Assembly (NCBI GenBank): GCA_041665545.1
Contig: JBAYIQ010000002.1
Coordinates: 2,369 to 66,368, forward strand
Length of the DNA stretch: 64,000 nucleotides
Source: Patescibacteria group bacterium
GTDB lineage: Bacteria > Patescibacteriota > Patescibacteriia > UBA1558 > GWA2-36-10
Direction of reading: 5' to 3'
The position numbers and the translations under genes were made by a program. Positions 8,861-29,566 of the stretch are shown one piece after another (positions within the stretch are counted from its first letter, which is position 1; every line of letters begins with the position of its first letter). The notes under the pieces are model-generated. The model saw nothing but the letters and a program-made list of their open reading frames with translations. It did not search any database and had not been told where the DNA came from.

Positions 8861-9640
8861 TTAAAACAATAATAAATTAAAATACCATTTGATAATTTCA
8901 CTGCCATATAGCAAACTAGCAAACGTCGCCACAGTCAAAAAAGTACCAAAAGGCACCCTGTCACTCCACTGTTTTCTTTTGCTCAAAATCAGAAAAATAC
9001 TAATAATACTGCCCAAGGTATAGGCCAAGATCAAAGCCAATAGCACCTGTGGCCAGCCAAGTAGCGCGCCCATCAAAAGCCCAATGCGTATATCTCCCCC
9101 GCCAATCCAACGGCCTTTGGACACCACAAACTGCATTAAGAAAAATCCTGCTCCCACTAGGCAAGCCAGTAAAACTTTAAAAATATTGCCACCCAAAATA
9201 ATATTGAACACAAAGGCAATAACGGCCGCCGGTAAAACTACGGCATCAGCCACCAGATAATATTTCCAATCAAAAACAAAAATTATAATCAAAAAAGCCG
9301 TGGCTACCCACCAGTTGAGCAGTGCCAAGTACTGCCAATAAGTGGCCTGATAAATATCAGGGGGCATGACGCTGGTATACACCAAAACCAAGCTCAGGGC
9401 TGTAAATAACTCCACCAAAGGATATTGGATGGAAAATTTGTGCTTACAATGCCGACACTTGCCTCTTAGATAAAAATAGCTAAAAAAAGGCACCAAATCT
9501 CTGACCATGAGCTGATGCTGACAAAAAAGGCACTTGGATCTTCCCTTAACAAAGGTCTCTTGGCGATGCAAACGAAAAACTACCACATTCAAGAAACTCC
9601 CTAAAAATAGACCAAAAATAAAAATTAAAGCTATTAACAT
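8861..9640 (-). CDS. pilD: prepilin peptidase (A24 family)
   Basis: 259 aa; the N-terminal Cys pairs C-x-x-C...C-x-x-C (CLFCQHQ...CRHCKH) and a polytopic membrane body are typical of PilD/GspO. Confidence 0.85.
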   Translation of the reverse strand: MLIALIFIFGLFLGSFLNVVVFRLHRQETFVKGRSKCLFCQHQLMVRDLVPFFSYFYLRGKCRHCKHKFSIQYPLVELFTALSLVLVYTSVMPPDIYQATYWQYLALLNWWVATAFLIIIFVFDWKYYLVADAVVLPAAVIAFVFNIILGGNIFKVLLACLVGAGFFLMQFVVSKGRWIGGGDIRIGLLMGALLGWPQVLLALILAYTLGSIISIFLILSKRKQWSDRVPFGTFLTVATFASLLYGSEIIKWYFNLLLF

Positions 9641-9688
9641 AATAGCTTTATTATAACATATTTAAGGGCTTGTGGGCTAATGACCTAC

Positions 9689-9794
9689 TTTTGTTCGAGC
9701 AAGGTTACGCAAAGCGGAACCGCATCGAGAACTCTAGTGCAGTCGAAAATTGCATTTCATGGATTTCTCGACTCGCTCCGCTCGCTCGAAGAAA
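9689..9794. repeat. GIY-YIG-associated nested hairpin repeat (TTCGAGC...TCGAGAA...TTCTCGA...GCTCGAA), 3' flank of the GIY-YIG gene
   Basis: Nested inverted repeats are visible; it is near-identical to the solo copy at 24887-24993. Confidence 0.65.
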
Positions 9795-10070
9795 TTACAT
9801 AATTTTACCCCACTGTCCATTAATGAGTTTTTCTTTTTTGATCCTGCTCCAATCTTTTATTTCTTTTTCTCTATATCTCGCACAATCAAAATCATCATAT
9901 TCCTCAACATAGATCAATTTTTTAATCCCATGCTTAGCTGTAAATTTAGAACCTAAACCACTTAAATGTTGATCAAGCCTTTTACTGACATCATTAGTTA
10001 AACCAACGTAATAAAGATCATCCTTGCAGAGGATAATATAAACAAACCATGATTTTTCTTTTTTAGACAT
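9795..10070 (-). CDS. small GIY-YIG nuclease family protein (UPF0213/YhbQ-like)
   Basis: 91 aa; WFVYIILCKDDLYYVGLTNDVSKRLDQH is a GIY-YIG motif. A second, interrupted copy lies at 28537-28815. Confidence 0.75.
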   Translation of the reverse strand: MSKKEKSWFVYIILCKDDLYYVGLTNDVSKRLDQHLSGLGSKFTAKHGIKKLIYVEEYDDFDCARYREKEIKDWSRIKKEKLINGQWGKIM

Positions 10071-10113
10071 CGCTTTTCTTAATAACGATTAGTATGTTTA
10101 TTTGGGTTCTGCT

Positions 10114-10236
10114 TTTTGTTCGAGCGAAGTCGAGAACTAATATTTTATAAACTTCTCGACTCCCCCTTCGGTGTCGCTCGAAGAAATAAGCTTTTGTTCG
10201 AGTAAGGTTATGCGAATCATAACCGCATCGAGAACT
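10114..10236. repeat. GIY-YIG-associated nested hairpin repeats (5' flank unit 10114-10190 plus partial unit 10192-10236)
   Basis: Outer stem TTCGAGCG/CGCTCGAA and inner stem GTCGAGAA/TTCTCGAC. It is the reverse complement of the repeat upstream of the pseudogene copy (28453-28536). Confidence 0.65.
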
Positions 10237-10244
10237 AACAAATC

Positions 10245-10682
10245 TTACAAATCCACGCAATACAGCAACGCTTCTTTCAGGATCCGACAACGGCCACCTT
10301 TGAACTTATTCACACCCCAAGCTGGCCAAGAATTATTCACCGAAAAATCTAGCTGATAATCATCATTCTGAATAGCCAAAGTAGTGTCCTCTGGCCAGAC
10401 AACATTATTAACATAAAATATCTGCGAACCACTTTCATTGACTCCTTGATCAGAAATATACTTAAGCTTATCAATAGTGATTTTGTCAATCTCCGGATAA
10501 GAACGATAAAGAGAATAATATTTTTCCAAAGCCCCGACTAGCAGTCTGGCATTGACTGCTGTCTGCACATCACGACTGCGACTATTGTTGTAATTAGTAA
10601 CTAGTACAATACCAATAATAGCCAAGACCATCAGCCCAATAAAAATTGCTTTAGTTTTTAAACTATATCTATCTAGTATCAT
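10245..10682 (-). CDS. hypothetical membrane-anchored protein, possibly degenerate pilin-like
   Basis: 145 aa with an N-terminal TM helix followed by SRSRDVQTAVNARLLVGALEKYY, which resembles the post-helix region of type IV pilins. There is no canonical G-F-T-L-I-E site. Confidence 0.35.
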   Translation of the reverse strand: MILDRYSLKTKAIFIGLMVLAIIGIVLVTNYNNSRSRDVQTAVNARLLVGALEKYYSLYRSYPEIDKITIDKLKYISDQGVNESGSQIFYVNNVVWPEDTTLAIQNDDYQLDFSVNNSWPAWGVNKFKGGRCRILKEALLYCVDL

Positions 10683-10733
10683 ATTTCTAAATTATTCGAC
10701 CCAGCGTGTCGGCCCGACCTCGCGGGTCTATCC

Positions 10734-11138
10734 TCATATGTCAGTTTTAGTACAGCCATCCTGAGTACAAGTCACAGTCGCAATATCAGTAATAGCACTA
10801 AAAGAAAAACTATTGGCCCCCTGATCACTGTCACAAAGGCCTTCGTCTACACCCATGGGGACGCGTGGCCACTCACTGTCAGAGCCATTACACAAAAGAT
10901 CTTCCTCTTGCCAAACTCGCGTGCCGTCACAAGCCACACCAGTACTATCTCTCAAATCCTGTTGAGCATCCTGACACAAAACAGCGGCCGAAATAAGACC
11001 AGACAAGGCCTTCTCAGCAGCCGCCACGCGCGCCAGCTTCCTGGCTCTATCCATACGCACCACTTGATAAGCCCCTAAGATACCAATAATGGCTATAACT
11101 ACCAATATTTCTATTAAACCAAAACCTTTTCTCTGCAT
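10734..11138 (-). CDS. type IV major pilin (PilA-like), paralog 2
   Basis: Start refined to the ATG at 11138: MQRKG|FGLIEILVVIAIIGILG. It shares an LCQD motif and a Cys pair with the neighbouring pilin. Confidence 0.8.
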   Translation of the reverse strand: MQRKGFGLIEILVVIAIIGILGAYQVVRMDRARKLARVAAAEKALSGLISAAVLCQDAQQDLRDSTGVACDGTRVWQEEDLLCNGSDSEWPRVPMGVDEGLCDSDQGANSFSFSAITDIATVTCTQDGCTKTDI

Positions 11139-11224
11139 ATAATATATTATACCATAATATTTGGAGTAACAAAAAACCCTACGCGAAATAGCGAGGGAAT
11201 TTTGTTTTTGAACTATAATAAATG

Positions 11225-11647
11225 CTACGAACAATAAGTAGCAGTTTGATTGGTAGCAGAAACACAACCATTTTGATTACATGTTATGCTCTCCCATGAA
11301 CCAGGTGTACCTGATTCTAAACCAATCTCCCATGTGCCATTTTGCGGATCCGCCTCAATGACGCAAGGTGTATAACCAGTTGGTGCTGTTGGCCATAATT
11401 GACCAATGGCATTACCAGCCGCTAATCCACAAATATCTGCAGTAACAAGATAAGGATTTAATACAGCAGTGGTGTCTTTATCTTGACACAAAACAATAGC
11501 GCCAGAAAGACTGGAACCCCAAGCTTTGGCAGCGGCTACTTTGGCTTTGTTTCTAGCTTGGTTCAAGTTAACAACGGCCACGACTGACAAAATACCGATA
11601 ATGGCAATAACCACTAACAACTCAATTAAAGTAAAACCTTTTTTCAT
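11225..11647 (-). CDS. type IV major pilin (PilA-like), paralog 1
   Basis: Start refined to the ATG at 11647, preceded by a GGAGGTG RBS: MKKG|FTLIELLVVIAIIGILSVVAVVNLNQARNKAKVAAAKA. Confidence 0.85.
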   Translation of the reverse strand: MKKGFTLIELLVVIAIIGILSVVAVVNLNQARNKAKVAAAKAWGSSLSGAIVLCQDKDTTAVLNPYLVTADICGLAAGNAIGQLWPTAPTGYTPCVIEADPQNGTWEIGLESGTPGSWESITCNQNGCVSATNQTATYCS

Positions 11648-11760
11648 TGTTGTTTCACCTCCCTTCAAATACCCAAGGCAATAATCTATAGCTTGAGATC
11701 CCCAAAGCTCTAAATAAATCCTTGGTTTTTTTAATTATTAAATTAATAAATACTTCTTAT

Positions 11761-24732: not shown

Positions 24733-24870
24733 AAAAAAACCGCCTACCAATTGTCATTCTGGAGCGAAATCCGCAGGACGAAGCGATAGAATCTACAGTT
24801 TGATTAAAACCCGTAGATTCTATCGGTCGCTCCGCTCCCTCCAGAATGACGACGAAACAGGCGGTTTTTT
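24733..24870. repeat. ~135-nt triple-nested palindromic repeat, copy 2 (A7CCGCCT...AGGCGGT6 outermost stem; GTCATTCTGGAG/CTCCAGAATGAC; GCGATAGAATCTAC/GTAGATTCTATCG)
   Basis: All three stem levels were read directly. It is flanked by an A-run and a T-run and so looks like a bidirectional intrinsic terminator, directly downstream of lemA. Confidence 0.7.
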
Positions 24871-24886
24871 ATTTTTAACAACTCTG

Positions 24887-25026
24887 TTTTTGTTCGAGTA
24901 AGGTTACGCGAAGCGAAACCGCATCGAGAACTATAGTGCAGTCGAAAATTATATTTCATGGACTTCTCGACTCCCTACGGTCGCTCGAAGAAAAAAAGTT
25001 ATTATGGATCGCTCAAAGAAATAAGC
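24887..25026. repeat. solo copy of the GIY-YIG-associated nested hairpin repeat (no nuclease gene)
   Basis: Near-identical to 9689-9794 (TTTTGTTCGAGTAAGGTTACGCGAAGCGAAACCGCATCGAGAACT...TTCTCGACTCC...GCTCGAAGAAA), followed by a short terminal motif resembling the 5'-flank repeat. Confidence 0.65.
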
Positions 25027-25972: not shown

Positions 25973-28450
25973 ATGAGTACTCAACCACAAAATATCTTAA
26001 ATAAATTTACTTACCACTTTAAGCGTGTTTTGATTAACGCCCAGAATTTGGCTTTGGCCAAAAAAAATACTGAAATAGAGCCGGAAGATTTGCTAGTTTC
26101 GCTATTTACTACCAAAGGCGCCTTGGGCTCTGATATTTTGATAAAACATAATGTCAAAATTGATTTAGGCAACCCCAATAATAGTATTGATTTTGAAATT
26201 GTAGCTACTGTGGATCCAAGTCATTTACCACAACCCTCTACCCTAGCCCAACGGGTTATTGAACGAGCGGTTATTGCGGCTTACAAATTTCAGCACAAAT
26301 ATGTGGGCACTGAACACTTGCTCTACGGCTTCATGGACACGGCTGATGAAAATATTGCTGTTATTTTACAAAAGGCCAATATCAATTCCCACAATTTGAA
26401 ACAGCACTTGAATATGGTGCTAAAAAGCAACAACAAATTCAATGATTTAAGCGCCGAAGAAAATACTGTCAAAGACTTGGACGCTCTCTTTGATGAAAAC
26501 GCACCCGAGCCAAATCCCCTGGACATCTACACTATCAATCTGACTAGCGCCGAGGTGCAAAAAGACATTGACCCAGTCATCGGTCGCCAAAAAGAATTGG
26601 ATAGATTGATTGAGATCCTATCACGGCGCACAAAAAATAATCCCGTGCTTTTGGGTGATGCTGGCGTGGGCAAAACCGCCATCATTGAAGGTTTGGCCAA
26701 AAGAATTTTGGAAGGCCAAGTGCCTGATGTTTTGCTAAACAAAACTATCTTGAATTTGGATCTATCTGCCCTGATTGCCGGCACTATGTACAGAGGCGAG
26801 TTTGAAAATCGCCTCAAGCAAGTCATTAATGAAATAAAAAACAACCCCAATATAATTATTTTTATTGACGAATTGCACACCATCATGGGCGCAGGAGCGA
26901 CTGCTGGCTCACTGGACGCGGCCAATATCTTGAAGCCGGCTCTGGCCAGGGGCTACTTGCGCTGTATTGGTGCCACTACTTTTGAGGAATACAAAAAACA
27001 CATTGAAACTGACCGCGCTTTGGAAAGACGCTTTCAGTCTGTAGTCATCAATGAATCCAGTGAAAAAGAAACCTTGGAAATTCTCAAGGGTTTGAAAAAA
27101 AATTACGAAAAATTCCACCAAGTCAACATCAAAGACGAGGCCTTGGAGGCGGCTGTACTTTTGAGCAAACGATTTTTGCCAGACAAAAAACTACCAGACA
27201 AGGCCATTGATTTGATTGACGAAGCTTCGGCTCGACTCAAGGTCAGGCAAACCAAACGCAGTCTAGCTAAAGAAATCAGAAAACTAGAAGAACAAGCGCA
27301 AAATTGCCAAAACAATAAACGCCAAGCTATTTTGTCTGAAGATTATTTGGACGCTCTCAAATACCGCGATGAAGAAGAAGTGATATTAACCCAATTGGTC
27401 GGCCTACAAGCCCAAGAAGACAAACAAAAACAATCTAGTCTTGGCGAAATCACAAGCATTGATATTGCCGAAATAATTTCGGAAATGAGCCAAGTACCTG
27501 TAGGCGATCTAACAGCCACTGATCAGCAAAACCTCATCCAATTGGAAGAAAAAATTGGTCGCTATGTTTTTGGTCAAGAAAATGCTCTACAAACCATTGC
27601 TCAAACCATCCGCCAAGCCAAAGCGGGCTTAACTGACAAAAACAAGCCATTGGCTTCATTTATGTTTTTGGGACCATCCGGAGTCGGTAAAACCGAAACT
27701 GCTAAGCAATTAGCCAATTTTGTTTTTGGTGGCAAACATAATTTATTGCGCATTGACATGTCAGAGTTTTCTGAAAGCTTCAATATTTCCAAATTGATTG
27801 GCTCTCCGGCTGGCTATGTGGGCTATCGCGAAGGCAATAAATTGACTGACACCATAAAAAATAAACCCTACACTTTAATATTGTTTGATGAAATTGAAAA
27901 AGCTCACGCTGATATTTTTAATCTGTTATTACCGATCTTAGAGGAGGGCGAATTGACTGATGCTACTGGTCGGACCATAAATTTCCGCAATTGTGTTATT
28001 ATCATGACCTCCAACATTGGCCTGCCAGAATTCAATCACGAAGCAATCATGGGCTTTGATCTTGGTAATGAAAACAACAGCCAGTTCAAACATGTGTCCA
28101 ACAAAGTATTGAGCAGTTTGAGCAAACATTTTCCCCCGGAGTTTATCAACCGCTTAAATGGGGCCGTAGTTTTTGACCCCATCAGCAAAGAAGCGGCCAA
28201 CAAAATAATCAAACAAGAAATCAAACAATTGTCCCAAACCTTGTCTGACCAGGATATACGGCTGACTATACCAGTTAGCGTCACTAATAAATTGCTGACT
28301 ATGGCGCCAGAGTACATTCAGACTGGCGCTCGTGGCTTGAAAAAAATAGTTGATCAGGAATTAGCCAATCCTATAGCTAAAATATTGCTAAGTAAAAAAA
28401 CCAAAAATATCCGCGCCAGCTTGATAAAAGAAAAAATAGTTTTGAAATAA
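25973..28450 (+). CDS. Clp-family AAA+ chaperone, ClpC/ClpB-like (two ATPase domains)
   Basis: 825 aa with an N-terminal Clp repeat region, two Walker A sites (GDAGVGKTAI, GPSGVGKTETA) and a short middle region, so more ClpC-like than ClpB-like. Confidence 0.85.
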   Translation: MSTQPQNILNKFTYHFKRVLINAQNLALAKKNTEIEPEDLLVSLFTTKGALGSDILIKHNVKIDLGNPNNSIDFEIVATVDPSHLPQPSTLAQRVIERAVIAAYKFQHKYVGTEHLLYGFMDTADENIAVILQKANINSHNLKQHLNMVLKSNNKFNDLSAEENTVKDLDALFDENAPEPNPLDIYTINLTSAEVQKDIDPVIGRQKELDRLIEILSRRTKNNPVLLGDAGVGKTAIIEGLAKRILEGQVPDVLLNKTILNLDLSALIAGTMYRGEFENRLKQVINEIKNNPNIIIFIDELHTIMGAGATAGSLDAANILKPALARGYLRCIGATTFEEYKKHIETDRALERRFQSVVINESSEKETLEILKGLKKNYEKFHQVNIKDEALEAAVLLSKRFLPDKKLPDKAIDLIDEASARLKVRQTKRSLAKEIRKLEEQAQNCQNNKRQAILSEDYLDALKYRDEEEVILTQLVGLQAQEDKQKQSSLGEITSIDIAEIISEMSQVPVGDLTATDQQNLIQLEEKIGRYVFGQENALQTIAQTIRQAKAGLTDKNKPLASFMFLGPSGVGKTETAKQLANFVFGGKHNLLRIDMSEFSESFNISKLIGSPAGYVGYREGNKLTDTIKNKPYTLILFDEIEKAHADIFNLLLPILEEGELTDATGRTINFRNCVIIMTSNIGLPEFNHEAIMGFDLGNENNSQFKHVSNKVLSSLSKHFPPEFINRLNGAVVFDPISKEAANKIIKQEIKQLSQTLSDQDIRLTIPVSVTNKLLTMAPEYIQTGARGLKKIVDQELANPIAKILLSKKTKNIRASLIKEKIVLK

Positions 28451-28452
28451 TT

Positions 28453-28536
28453 TTTCTTCGAGCGATCCCGAGCAAAGCCGAGGGAGAGTCGAGAAGTTCT
28501 CGACTGCGCTCGAACAAATATTATATAAGAAAAGCG
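28453..28536. repeat. GIY-YIG-associated nested hairpin repeat (upstream of pseudogene copy)
   Basis: TTTCTTCGAGCGA...GAGTCGAGAAGTTCTCGACTG CGCTCGAACAAA...TAAGAAAAGCG-ATG, with outer and inner palindromes. Confidence 0.65.
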
Positions 28537-28815
28537 ATGATTCCCGTTAGAAATTCCCAATGGTTTGTTTATATTATCCTGTGCAAGGATGATCTTTATT
28601 ATGTTGGCCTAACCAATGACATTAGTAAGAGATTTGATCAACACTTGAGTGGCCTGGGATCAAAATTTACCGCTAAACACGGGGTGAAAGAGTTAGTTTA
28701 TGTGGAGTAATATGATGATTTTGATTGTGCGAGATATAGAGAAAAAGAAATAAAAGATTGGAGCAGGATCAAAAAAGAAAAACTCATTAATGGGCAGTGG
28801 GGTAAAATTATGTAA
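28537..28815 (+). pseudogene. GIY-YIG nuclease family gene interrupted by an in-frame TAA (codon 58; GAA in the intact paralog)
   Basis: Translation MIPVRNSQWFVYIILCKDDLYYVGLTNDISKRFDQHLSGLGSKFTAKHGVKELVYVE*YDDFDCARYREKEIKDWSRIKKEKLINGQWGKIM is ~90% identical to the 9795-10070 product apart from the stop. Confidence 0.7.
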
Positions 28816-28900
28816 TTTCTTCGAGCGACCATGGGGAGTCGAGAAGTTAATGAAATACTAGTTCTCGACTGCGCTCGAACAAATATTATTTAAGAAAACA
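28816..28900. repeat. GIY-YIG-associated nested hairpin repeat (second copy, immediately upstream of the comF-like gene)
   Basis: Same architecture as 28453-28536. Both copies end in ...TAAGAAAA[GCG/CA]ATGATTCC, so the repeat plus ~20 nt of the gene 5' end are duplicated. Confidence 0.65.
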
Positions 28901-29566
28901 ATGATTCCTTTTAGCCAATATCTAAATAATTTTTTAGATTATATATTCCCTCAATTTTGTTTGGGCTGTAAGCAAGAAGGAAATATATTTTGTGATTCTT
29001 GTCTAAACAAATTAGAATTACTACCCGACAACCAGAAACCCTGGCCTGAGGAAAATTTTTTGTTTGATGAGTGCCATATTTGCCTTGATTATCACGATCC
29101 AGTTGTCAAAAAATTAATTAAAAAATATAAATATGGCTATTTTGACAACTTGGCCAATCCAATTGCCGCGGTCTATATCAAAAAAATAAACAATTTAAAT
29201 TTAAATAATGCTTTTATTATCTGCAATGTTCCTCTGCACAAACGCAAAAAGAAAAAACGTGGCTTTGACCAAACCGAATTAATTGCCAAAAAAATTAGTG
29301 CTAATACTCAAATCCCCTATTTTGATTTATTAAACCGCCAGCGTTTCACCAAAGCACAAGCCGAGCTTGATAAAGAGCAACGACAAAAAAATATGTCGCA
29401 AGCTTTTGTGATTAACAAAAAAATTAACTCACTGGAGTTAATTAATCACCCTGTATTATTGATTGACGATATTGCCACCACTGGCACCACTCTGAATGAG
29501 GCCTCTCGTGCCCTCCAACAAGCTGGTTTTAAACAAATTATTTGCCTAGCCTTAGCTAAAAACTAA
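28901..29566 (+). CDS. comFC: ComF-family protein (phosphoribosyltransferase-domain competence protein)
   Basis: 221 aa with an N-terminal Zn-finger (CLGCKQEGNIFCDSC) and a C-terminal PRTase motif (VLLIDDIATTGTTL). Confidence 0.75.
   Translation: MIPFSQYLNNFLDYIFPQFCLGCKQEGNIFCDSCLNKLELLPDNQKPWPEENFLFDECHICLDYHDPVVKKLIKKYKYGYFDNLANPIAAVYIKKINNLNLNNAFIICNVPLHKRKKKKRGFDQTELIAKKISANTQIPYFDLLNRQRFTKAQAELDKEQRQKNMSQAFVINKKINSLELINHPVLLIDDIATTGTTLNEASRALQQAGFKQIICLALAKN

Follow-up and report, generated by a model that had tools for sequence, protein, structure and literature searches.

What is a minimal nuclease gene, set between long palindromes, doing inside the type IV pilus operon of a Patescibacteria group bacterium? 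The locus lies in a 64-kb stretch of contig JBAYIQ010000002.1 (“the window” below always means this whole stretch), in which an intact gene for a 91-amino-acid (aa) single-domain GIY-YIG nuclease stands between pilD and a 145-aa gene of the operon, with hairpin repeats (“units”) on both sides. An initial annotation had described the gene as bracketed by nested-palindrome repeats, which Pfam and a covariance model confirm, and had placed the element correctly between pilD and the 145-aa gene and pilin genes. We consider it probable that gene and units form an insertion sequence (IS)-like module of the Ssn/SRM kind, in which the nuclease would recognize its own folded unit on single-stranded DNA and cut nearby, the breaks mobilizing the units. 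The general principle of a nuclease paired with hairpin repeats was already published in 2025; new here are a distinct protein clade, a more complex repeat family, an open reading frame (ORF) enclosed by the hairpin, host phyla new to such systems, and direct evidence of mobility from comparisons with relatives.

The precedent is SsnA of Neisseria meningitidis, a 94-aa single-domain GIY-YIG protein (cd10448) whose gene lies between NTS hairpin repeats, a family numbering hundreds of copies (PMC11893778). SsnA binds the single-stranded DNA form of the hairpin, makes its cut upstream, and does not act on double-stranded DNA, RNA, or the reverse strand; three homologues, like SsnA, each cut single-stranded DNA beside the hairpin repeats that flank their own genes, and repeats of this kind lie near 71% of ssnA homologues (on both sides in 42%) (PMC11893778). 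The authors regarded the arrangement as IS-like and likened it to RAYT/REP systems, and they assigned proteins to the family by cd10448 or by blastp (E<1e-10, >=75% coverage) to SsnA CAX49033.1 (PMC11893778). The earlier suggestion that the window's repeats may be recognition sites of the nuclease fits this precedent. Neither Patescibacteria, Omnitrophota, nor an ORF nested in a repeat is mentioned by Chenal et al. 2025 (PMC11893778), and the literature on GIY-YIG proteins linked to miniature inverted-repeat transposable elements (MITEs), REPINs, or cruciforms yielded nothing specific besides that paper.

The nuclease gene and its hairpin units

The 91-aa protein matched PF01541 over residues 8-79 and no other Pfam family, with no additional DNA-binding domain, and scored 20 bits against TIGR01453 (group I intron endonuclease; cut-off 56). 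Residues Y11, Y21, G23, R31, H35, and E68 were invariant in an alignment of 18 clade members, and the catalytic Tyr, Tyr, Arg, and Glu are thus all intact in the clade. In a search of the PDB, the closest solved structures were the UPF0213 proteins 1zg2 (E=8e-13) and 1ywl (E=3.7e-9).

Every full unit in the window is a nested palindrome, in which an outer stem (TT(T/A)TTcTTCGAGCGA / TCGCTCGAAcAA(A/T)AA, with a conserved C.C mismatch inside) encloses an inner stem (GAGTCGAGAA / TTCTCGACTC). A covariance model built from related units and run on the whole window with filters off returned exactly five full units (E=1e-10 to 1.5e-19) and no other convincing match (Table 1); these five and one half-unit share a common orientation relative to the GIY-YIG genes. 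The 10-mer TTGTTCGAGY (one mismatch allowed) occurred 18 times in the window against 6.7 expected, a count reached in 0 of 100 shuffles. Folded as RNA, four of the five units beat their shuffles (z about -4), with the solo unit at 24885-24998 marginal (z -1.8; 10 of 200 shuffles as good). Folded as DNA, three units reached z -4.0 to -6.1, the long unit at 9686-9799 z -2.5, and the solo unit was again marginal (z -1.4; 19 of 200 shuffles as good).

In the gene's own reading direction, the stop codon of the 145-aa gene is followed by a 3' half-unit (10236 to 10192), the short unit (10191 to 10111), a spacer of ~40 nt, and the GIY-YIG ORF, and then by the long unit (9799 to 9686, overlapping the GIY-YIG stop), a spacer of ~45 nt, a conserved TATAAT-containing sequence (AAATATGTTATAATAAAGCTA, promoter-like as judged by eye), and pilD. 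The long unit is composite, joining a 5' part to a 3' half that bears a side hairpin (GGTTCCGC/GCGTAACC); at the counterpart position in L005 (L-numbers denote loci or contigs of relatives or of other genomes bearing the repeat or protein), the 3' half alone follows the GIY-YIG stop. The half-unit comprises the inner-stem 3' arm, a side hairpin, and the outer-stem 3' arm. The initial annotation also reported the same repeat around a second GIY-YIG copy and as a solo copy, and this holds, although the second copy is a pseudogene and 10192-10236 is merely a half-unit: the window contains an intact, rearranged copy, a pseudogene copy, a solo unit, and a half-unit. Beyond the 145-aa gene, the minus-strand pilus operon continues with two N-methyl pilin genes and then pilC- and pilT/B-like genes.

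Table 1. Positions of the nuclease genes, hairpin units, and adjoining features in the window
Feature	Position	Strand	Basis or setting
pilD (A24 prepilin peptidase)	8861-9640	-	pilus operon
Long nested-hairpin unit, directly after and overlapping the GIY-YIG stop codon	9686-9799	-	covariance model 46.4 bits, E=1.3e-10
Intact 91-aa single-domain GIY-YIG nuclease gene	9795-10070	-	Pfam PF01541 E=7e-18
Short nested-hairpin unit upstream of the GIY-YIG gene, in the gene's orientation	10111-10191	-	covariance model 77.4 bits, E=1.5e-19; DNA fold z=-6.1
3' half-unit just past the stop of the 145-aa gene	10192-10236	-	87% identical to the matching part of unit 9686-9799
145-aa gene	10245-10682	-	pilus operon, other side of the GIY-YIG gene from pilD
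Sibling-family palindrome, ~130 nt, then a T run	24745-24875	.	DNA fold -31.9 kcal/mol, z=-7.2
Solo long unit between lemA and the M48 peptidase gene, antisense to both	24885-24998	-	covariance model 54.4 bits, E=6.2e-13
Unit upstream of the second GIY-YIG copy, directly after the clpB-like gene	28448-28522	+	covariance model 57.1 bits, E=1.1e-13
Second GIY-YIG copy, pseudogene with in-frame TAA at codon 58	28537-28815	+	translation; alignment with copy 1
Unit downstream of the pseudogene, upstream of the comFC-like gene	28811-28887	+	covariance model 72.2 bits, E=4.5e-18

A widespread repeat family with conserved pairing

Searching one genome per species with the exact pattern TTCTTCGAG N8-30 TCGAGAA N3-33 TTCTCGA detected the unit in at least 120 contigs from Patescibacteria classes, Omnitrophota, metagenome-assembled genomes (MAGs) labelled Gammaproteobacteria, and others. 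Among the matches listed there were ~90 distinct true units, the remainder being chance matches in GC-rich coding DNA, and several MAGs contained many copies. Carriage by phages was rejected, as 2.9 million viral contigs gave no more than 2 unit matches. In the sense of the GIY-YIG gene, the consensus reads TTA TTCTTCGAG CGA [variable] GAG TCGAGAA G [loop] AG TTCTCGA C [variable] CTCGAACA ATAA, with the 3' outer arm and the TTA/ATAA ends conserved despite their absence from the search pattern. The outer stem covaries (AU 59 vs UA 8 at one pair; UA 38 vs AU 7 at another) and keeps its C.C mismatch in 64 of 69 sequences, and RNAalifold independently recovered both stems as well as the pair that closes the 5' side hairpin.

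The side hairpins vary in sequence and keep their pairing (closing pair GC in 25 sequences, CG in 10, AU in 10, and UA in 4), and the segments inserted between the stems fold better than shuffles on the 3' side (p=3.6e-6) and, more weakly, on the 5' side (p=0.002). Two forms of these variable segments were seen: either short linkers that are exact complements across the two sides (CGAACGGAGTGAG and CTCACTCCGTTCG), giving one stem of ~33 bp, or unrelated local hairpins, giving a three- or four-way junction. In one strain alone, L235 (~2150-2200; comparison with L234 and L237), the loop of an SRM-like hairpin holds an additional GC-rich hairpin (CCCGCCCGCC...GGGCGGG) as an insertion; insertion of one hairpin within another may explain the units' variable side hairpins. 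In L007 (2900-2950), one unit has three tandem copies of its 3' arm (GTTCTCGACAAGCTCGA), and the CGAG/CTCG motifs repeated in the arms seem prone to slippage. Several short-read assemblies of related strains end inside repeats or inside the near-identical tract common to both GIY-YIG copies (L002 1-171; ends of L230 and L233-L236).

Conserved pairing of this kind raises the question of whether the units act as RNA, either as cis-regulatory or processing elements (RNase III sites, or translational control in which the region of the ribosome-binding site pairs with the 3' end of the mRNA) or as small RNA genes. Beyond the strong predicted RNA folds of four units and the covarying side hairpins, where a gene is enclosed the inner 5' arm lies mostly 2-15 nt before its start codon and the 3' arm overlaps or directly follows its stop, so that pairing within the mRNA could mask translation initiation. 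However, solo units point either way relative to flanking ORFs (26 in the same direction and 23 in the opposite one), and wobble-type mismatches show no strand bias (G.T 38 vs A.C 36). Rfam 15 gave no match at any threshold: at gathering thresholds, tRNAs alone passed in the whole window and 8 related loci, and at E up to 10 there was no relevant match across positions 9600-10300. Insertion/deletion polymorphism and rearranged arrays, both found here (see below), are typical of DNA elements, and SsnA does not interact with RNA. The two orientations of solo units, the lack of an Rfam match, and the balanced mismatches lead us to read the unit as an interspersed element at the DNA level rather than a cis-acting RNA, and the structured-RNA option that the initial annotation had left standing is very improbable. 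Damping of nuclease translation by the arms could coexist with the Ssn/SRM-like explanation, yet it cannot explain dispersed copies.

Other known structures were also compared with the unit. By eye, it fitted neither hammerhead, twister, or pistol cores nor the R'/R'' boxes of integron attC sites (GTTCGAG is not GTTRRRY). A cis-regulatory RNA or terminator was rejected given the random orientation to neighboring genes and the lack of a T run after units.

Linkage of gene and repeat across phyla

Relatives carrying the GIY-YIG gene at 92%, 82%, and 73% identity all carry units. In addition, 80 metagenome loci were picked by protein alone (42-67% identity), and nested or flanked arrangements were scored over 84 loci (these 80 plus four earlier ones). 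In 23 of the 80, the ORF is nested exactly in the inner-stem loop: the gap between the 5' half of the unit and the start codon is about 1-39 nt (mostly 2-8 nt), and the stop codon either runs straight into the 3' half or is separated from it by up to ~16 nt (e.g., ...TGG TAG TTCTCGAC AAG CTCGAACAATAA). A further 20 of the 84 loci have the gene flanked by units, and the ORF is nested likewise in a different phylum, on a 320-kb contig labelled Pseudomonadota (L096). Most of the loci scored as having neither arrangement share the same architecture with compensating arms, either CCTGAGCGA..GTCGAAGGG with CCCTTCGAC..GCTCAGG or CCCGAG..TCGAGGG with CCCTCGAC..CTCGGG. Arm type tracks protein clade, nearest neighbors agreeing in 38 of 55 cases (null mean 20.7, null maximum 35).

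Seen from the repeat side, the picture differs. The wider repeat search showed that units are mostly unlinked to the nuclease: among the matches listed, a GIY-YIG gene adjoins 1 of 120 loci (119 without), and ORF-less units vastly outnumber filled ones; the loci selected by protein, on the other hand, usually carry units. ORF-less units nevertheless bear a trace of the gene, as TAG stands directly before the 3' inner arm in 36 of 94 of them, the spot of the stop codon in filled units, and one keeps TGGTAG. Taken together, ORF nesting, flanking, compensating arms, and TAG remnants indicate that GIY-YIG elements embedded in hairpins, along with the ORF-less units derived from them, make up a superfamily.

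A more distant small GIY-YIG gene was observed in L034 (4430-4720) between leuC- and leuD-looking genes, precisely flanked by a different 14-bp inverted repeat (ATCCCGCACCTTTT / AAAAGGTGCGGGAT).

History at the pilus site and mobility of units

The pilus site differs among relatives of the window's genome. L005 (PilD 95% identical) and L007 (GIY-YIG 82% identical) have the same GIY-YIG gene, with units differing in number and arrangement. L220/L221 (PilD 80%) have a GIY-YIG gene of another subfamily, encoding 96 aa and with arms beginning GTCATTGCGAGCGA, inside remnants of TTCGAG units. L223/L224 (PilD 78%) have an unrelated nested palindrome only, with no GIY-YIG gene. In L225/L226 (a 1.03-Mb contig; PilD 63%), a mere 43 nt separates a 143-aa gene from pilD, and no element is present. 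All relatives compared retain the sequence AAATATGTTATAATAAAGCTA immediately before pilD; since it reads like a promoter, the insertion would lie between stop codon and promoter. At L220 1880-2470 (also in L221), the embedding of the gene for the 96-aa protein (MQNQYFVYILASQKNGTLYVGVTNDL...) in TTCGAG-type remnants gives chimeric arms, and at L223 320-430 and L224 605-715 the palindrome at the pilus site reads AACCCCCT..TCCCCCTTAACAGGGGGA..TTCCCCTGTCAAGGGGAG..GGAGGGGTT. The pilus site appears to have been re-used by different nuclease-hairpin families.

Mobility at this site had been proposed in the initial annotation, and the empty allele at 63% PilD identity supports it; however, the gene has been inherited vertically there, as all relatives with 80-95% PilD identity have repeats at the site and the ratio of nonsynonymous to synonymous substitution (dN/dS) is about 0.08-0.12 (0.077 against L005 [0.053/0.69] and 0.125 against L007 [0.109/0.877]). 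These values point to an old insertion at the pilus site that has been kept by selection, with vertical inheritance of the gene under purifying selection.

Units themselves have moved recently. For the spacer between lemA and the M48 peptidase gene, the site of the window's solo unit, four contigs encode an identical LemA, of which L234 and L235 have a unit and L237 does not, nor does the close relative L231. What L234/L235 have and L237 lacks is an insertion of 86 nt bordered by a direct repeat of 11 nt (TTTTTTATTTG), a very recent polymorphism. No general target-site duplication was found across the units, and the conserved TTA...ATAA ends alone stand out; an extended outer stem would account for these ends just as well. 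The description of the element as selfish and mobile therefore stands as far as the empty site in L225/L226, the 86-nt polymorphism, and the ORF inside the repeat in relatives are concerned, but not in the form of a classical homing endonuclease aimed at the pilus operon, given that the protein has no DNA-binding domain.

A recent insertion with a direct repeat could also come from ordinary MITE-like or repetitive extragenic palindromic (REP)-like units moved by a transposase encoded elsewhere, the GIY-YIG gene then being a passenger or a host repair gene that is a favored landing site. Such an account accommodates the 119 of 120 repeat-selected loci without an adjoining GIY-YIG gene, conserved TTA...TAA ends as expected from insertion at a TA or TTAA target, and a gene that is vertically inherited under purifying selection. 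Like a MITE and its parent IS, the window's family has arms that act as terminal inverted repeats around an ORF, ORF-less copies that keep remnants of the ORF end, and one insertion with an 11-nt direct repeat; unlike them, it has no DDE, serine, tyrosine, or HUH transposase and no consistent target-site duplication. No transposase adjoined units in the loci inspected by eye, though no systematic transposase search was made. Exact ORF nesting recurs across phyla and arm families, arm type co-varies with protein clade, more than a third of ORF-less units (36 of 94) keep the stop triplet TAG, and the published Ssn family has the same gene-repeat linkage together with biochemical specificity. We judge a foreign transposase to be an improbable source of these units.

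The second GIY-YIG copy and the question of homing

The second GIY-YIG copy sits between clpB-like and comFC-like genes with a unit on each side. Its 3' ~95 nt differ from copy 1 at one position, and the identity runs into the start of the downstream unit; most of the ORF outside this tract is ~78% identical to copy 1. The edge of the near-identical tract adjoins the stop mutation. The mosaic suggests recent gene conversion between the loci at 9795-10070 and 28537-28815, and the second copy is decaying.

The main rival explanation starts from such exchange. A structure-specific nuclease of the Slx1 type would home among dispersed palindromes by cutting ORF-less units, whose short loops would allow extrusion of hairpins or cruciforms, and the gene would enter the cut unit when a filled copy serves for repair, with the arms as homology; filled copies would be spared because ~280 bp separates their arms. 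The protein does match the structures 1zg2 (BH0048) and 1ywl (EF2693), which have been placed in the bacterial Slx1 family of mostly vertically inherited repair factors (Dunin-Horkawicz et al. 2006, PMC1564403), and a stand-alone GIY-YIG protein of the SLX1 lineage cleaves junctions and a plasmid cruciform without a partner (PMC9071465). An ORF exactly in the unit loop, the near-identical tract of the two window copies (as gene conversion would give), and the second GIY-YIG subfamily inserted inside a resident unit in L220 all accord with it. Set against this, SsnA is inactive on double-stranded DNA (that assay did not include extruded cruciforms), the arrival of ORF-less units at new sites, such as the 86-nt insertion with its 11-nt duplication, goes unexplained, the vast excess of ORF-less over filled units among the matches listed runs counter to it, and the pseudogene shows that filled units decay too. 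Moreover, like the window protein, the UPF0213/Slx1-like proteins are minimal stand-alone GIY-YIG enzymes and are its best structural-database matches, but PMC1564403 reports no repeat association for them. We regard this rival as unlikely.

Comparison with GIY-YIG homing endonucleases (T4 Seg, I-TevI) is similarly mixed. As with those, the gene is inserted between host genes, relatives have empty alleles, and the window copies share a mosaic tract resembling gene conversion; unlike those, it has no DNA-binding domain or NUMOD and no intron, and the insertion sites are diverse intergenic ones rather than one conserved target gene.

Both GIY-YIG copies adjoin DNA-uptake or competence genes, namely the pilus operon (8861-11668) and the comFC-like gene (28901-29566), whose product is a phosphoribosyltransferase with a double zinc ribbon. 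This is co-location only and may be coincidence.

Relation to Ssn/SRM systems

Several features tie the window's element to the Ssn/SRM systems. The nuclease is in both cases a single-domain GIY-YIG protein of ~90-95 aa without a DNA-binding domain and with the GIY/YIG tyrosines and the metal-binding Glu conserved. Hairpin repeats stand on both sides of the gene (at both window loci) and are also dispersed, mostly in intergenic DNA; repeat orientation is fixed, nuclease-repeat pairs co-diversify, the layout is IS-like, and inheritance is domestication-like. Differences were also found: in many relatives of the window's element the ORF lies inside the repeat loop, and the hosts here are Patescibacteria, Omnitrophota, and other uncultured groups, with a low copy number in the window.

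A number of results weigh against assigning the element to this kind. As noted, most units among the matches listed have no GIY-YIG gene beside them, and the balance of G.T and A.C mismatches is uninformative for choosing the functional strand. As a nested palindrome with two stems, 65-115 nt long and in some copies bearing side hairpins, the window repeat differs from NTS/SRM, which are simple hairpins of 20-50 nt. The published SRM search pattern (HGTCWYN(0-2)YYVSBRHN(0-5)WNVSBRGN(0-2)RNCYNB; Chenal et al. 2025, PMC11893778) had 0 matches on both strands of the window against 0.16 expected. The pattern detects NTS and the hairpins in the lemA spacer of relatives but misses the NTS-like GTCATTCTGAG hairpins around the Planktothrix gene, and it is therefore a narrow test. 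As stand-ins for canonical Ssn-like proteins, we used the GIY-YIG proteins flanked by GTCATT hairpins of L220 (a Patescibacteria relative), Planktothrix, and Rhizobium. Scores within the clade of the window protein were 115-137 bits, against 45-69 bits with the GTCATT-type proteins and 50-66 bits with UPF0213/Slx1-like structures; in one set of these comparisons the window protein scored 57-69 bits (about 40-44% identity) with the stand-ins and 51-60 bits with the UPF0213 structures. The window protein, judged by these scores, forms a separate clade and, being about equally close to UPF0213 and GTCATT-type proteins, is at most a candidate member of cd10448. Terminal inverted repeats to which a single protein binds would likewise be expected to show compensating arms, so that these do not prove hairpin formation. 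Finally, long vertical retention of the gene under purifying selection is as much to be expected of a domesticated host function as of a selfish one.

The sibling palindrome in the window's lemA spacer has a unit-like architecture with different arms (outer GTCATTCTGGAGCGA...CTCCAGAATGAC, inner stem GATAGAATCTAC/GTAGATTCTATC) and matched the covariance model weakly (E=0.15). At the orthologous spot, relatives have two inverted hairpins (TGTCATTCCCGCGCAGGCGGGAATCTAC) that match the published SRM pattern and are NTS-like, and no canonical GTCATT-type GIY-YIG gene was found in the window. The relatives' SRM-pattern hairpins and the window's palindrome at the same spot indicate that canonical SRM-type repeats and a second family coexist in the lineage.

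The window's element also resembles systems of REP-associated tyrosine transposases (RAYTs) with REP or REPIN sequences, in which one gene is flanked by its own palindromic repeats, many copies lack the ORF, and the gene is mostly inherited vertically. REP hairpins are described as recognized in the form of single-stranded DNA (10.1101/2022.05.22.493013; PMC3479197). The enzyme here is, however, a GIY-YIG protein and not an HUH/Y1 (IS200/IS605-like) transposase, and the units are nested palindromes rather than REP doublets, inside which an ORF can sit.

A proposed course of events

For the Ssn/SRM-like module that we favor, the basic form would be the one seen in relatives, namely outer arm, inner arm, ORF, inner arm, outer arm, and the ORF-less copies of 65-115 nt scattered in intergenic DNA would be derivatives or non-autonomous partners. 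Hairpin recognition and cleavage by the 91-aa protein, as well as the route of unit movement, we infer from the likeness to SsnA. By that homology, the protein would recognize the folded hairpin on one single-stranded DNA strand, for example during replication, repair, or DNA uptake, and then cut near it, and the breaks would promote copying, insertion, loss, and recombination of units. The module probably entered between the 145-aa pilus gene and the promoter-like AAATATGTTATAATAAAGCTA before the split from the relatives with ~80% PilD identity; afterwards, purifying selection has kept the gene as the surrounding repeat array was reshuffled.

A bolder version would make the module a self-contained, hairpin-borne mobile element, with Ssn-like GIY-YIG proteins as the mobilizing enzymes of an unrecognized class of single-stranded-DNA hairpin transposable elements, autonomous copies carrying the nuclease gene in the hairpin loop, ORF-less hairpins being moved in trans, and the whole crossing phyla (Patescibacteria, Omnitrophota, and others) with arms and protein co-evolving. 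We put this forward tentatively, as a possibility that we rather doubt.

Implications

The Ssn paper proposed an IS-like origin, and our analysis adds comparative evidence in the form of loop-nested ORFs, ORF-less copies that keep TAG, empty sites, and a recent insertion. For work on reduced genomes, it matters that these repeats fragment assemblies, with several contigs ending inside them, and yield spurious ORFs. SsnA modulates natural transformation in Neisseria, and given this effect the nearness of the window's copies to DNA-uptake genes is of interest, as co-location only. New nuclease-hairpin pairs with covarying arms are candidate site-specific cutters of single-stranded DNA. If the proposed reading is true, minimal GIY-YIG nucleases paired with hairpin repeats of their own occur in candidate-phyla bacteria as well, and with a second type of repeat whose architecture is more complex.

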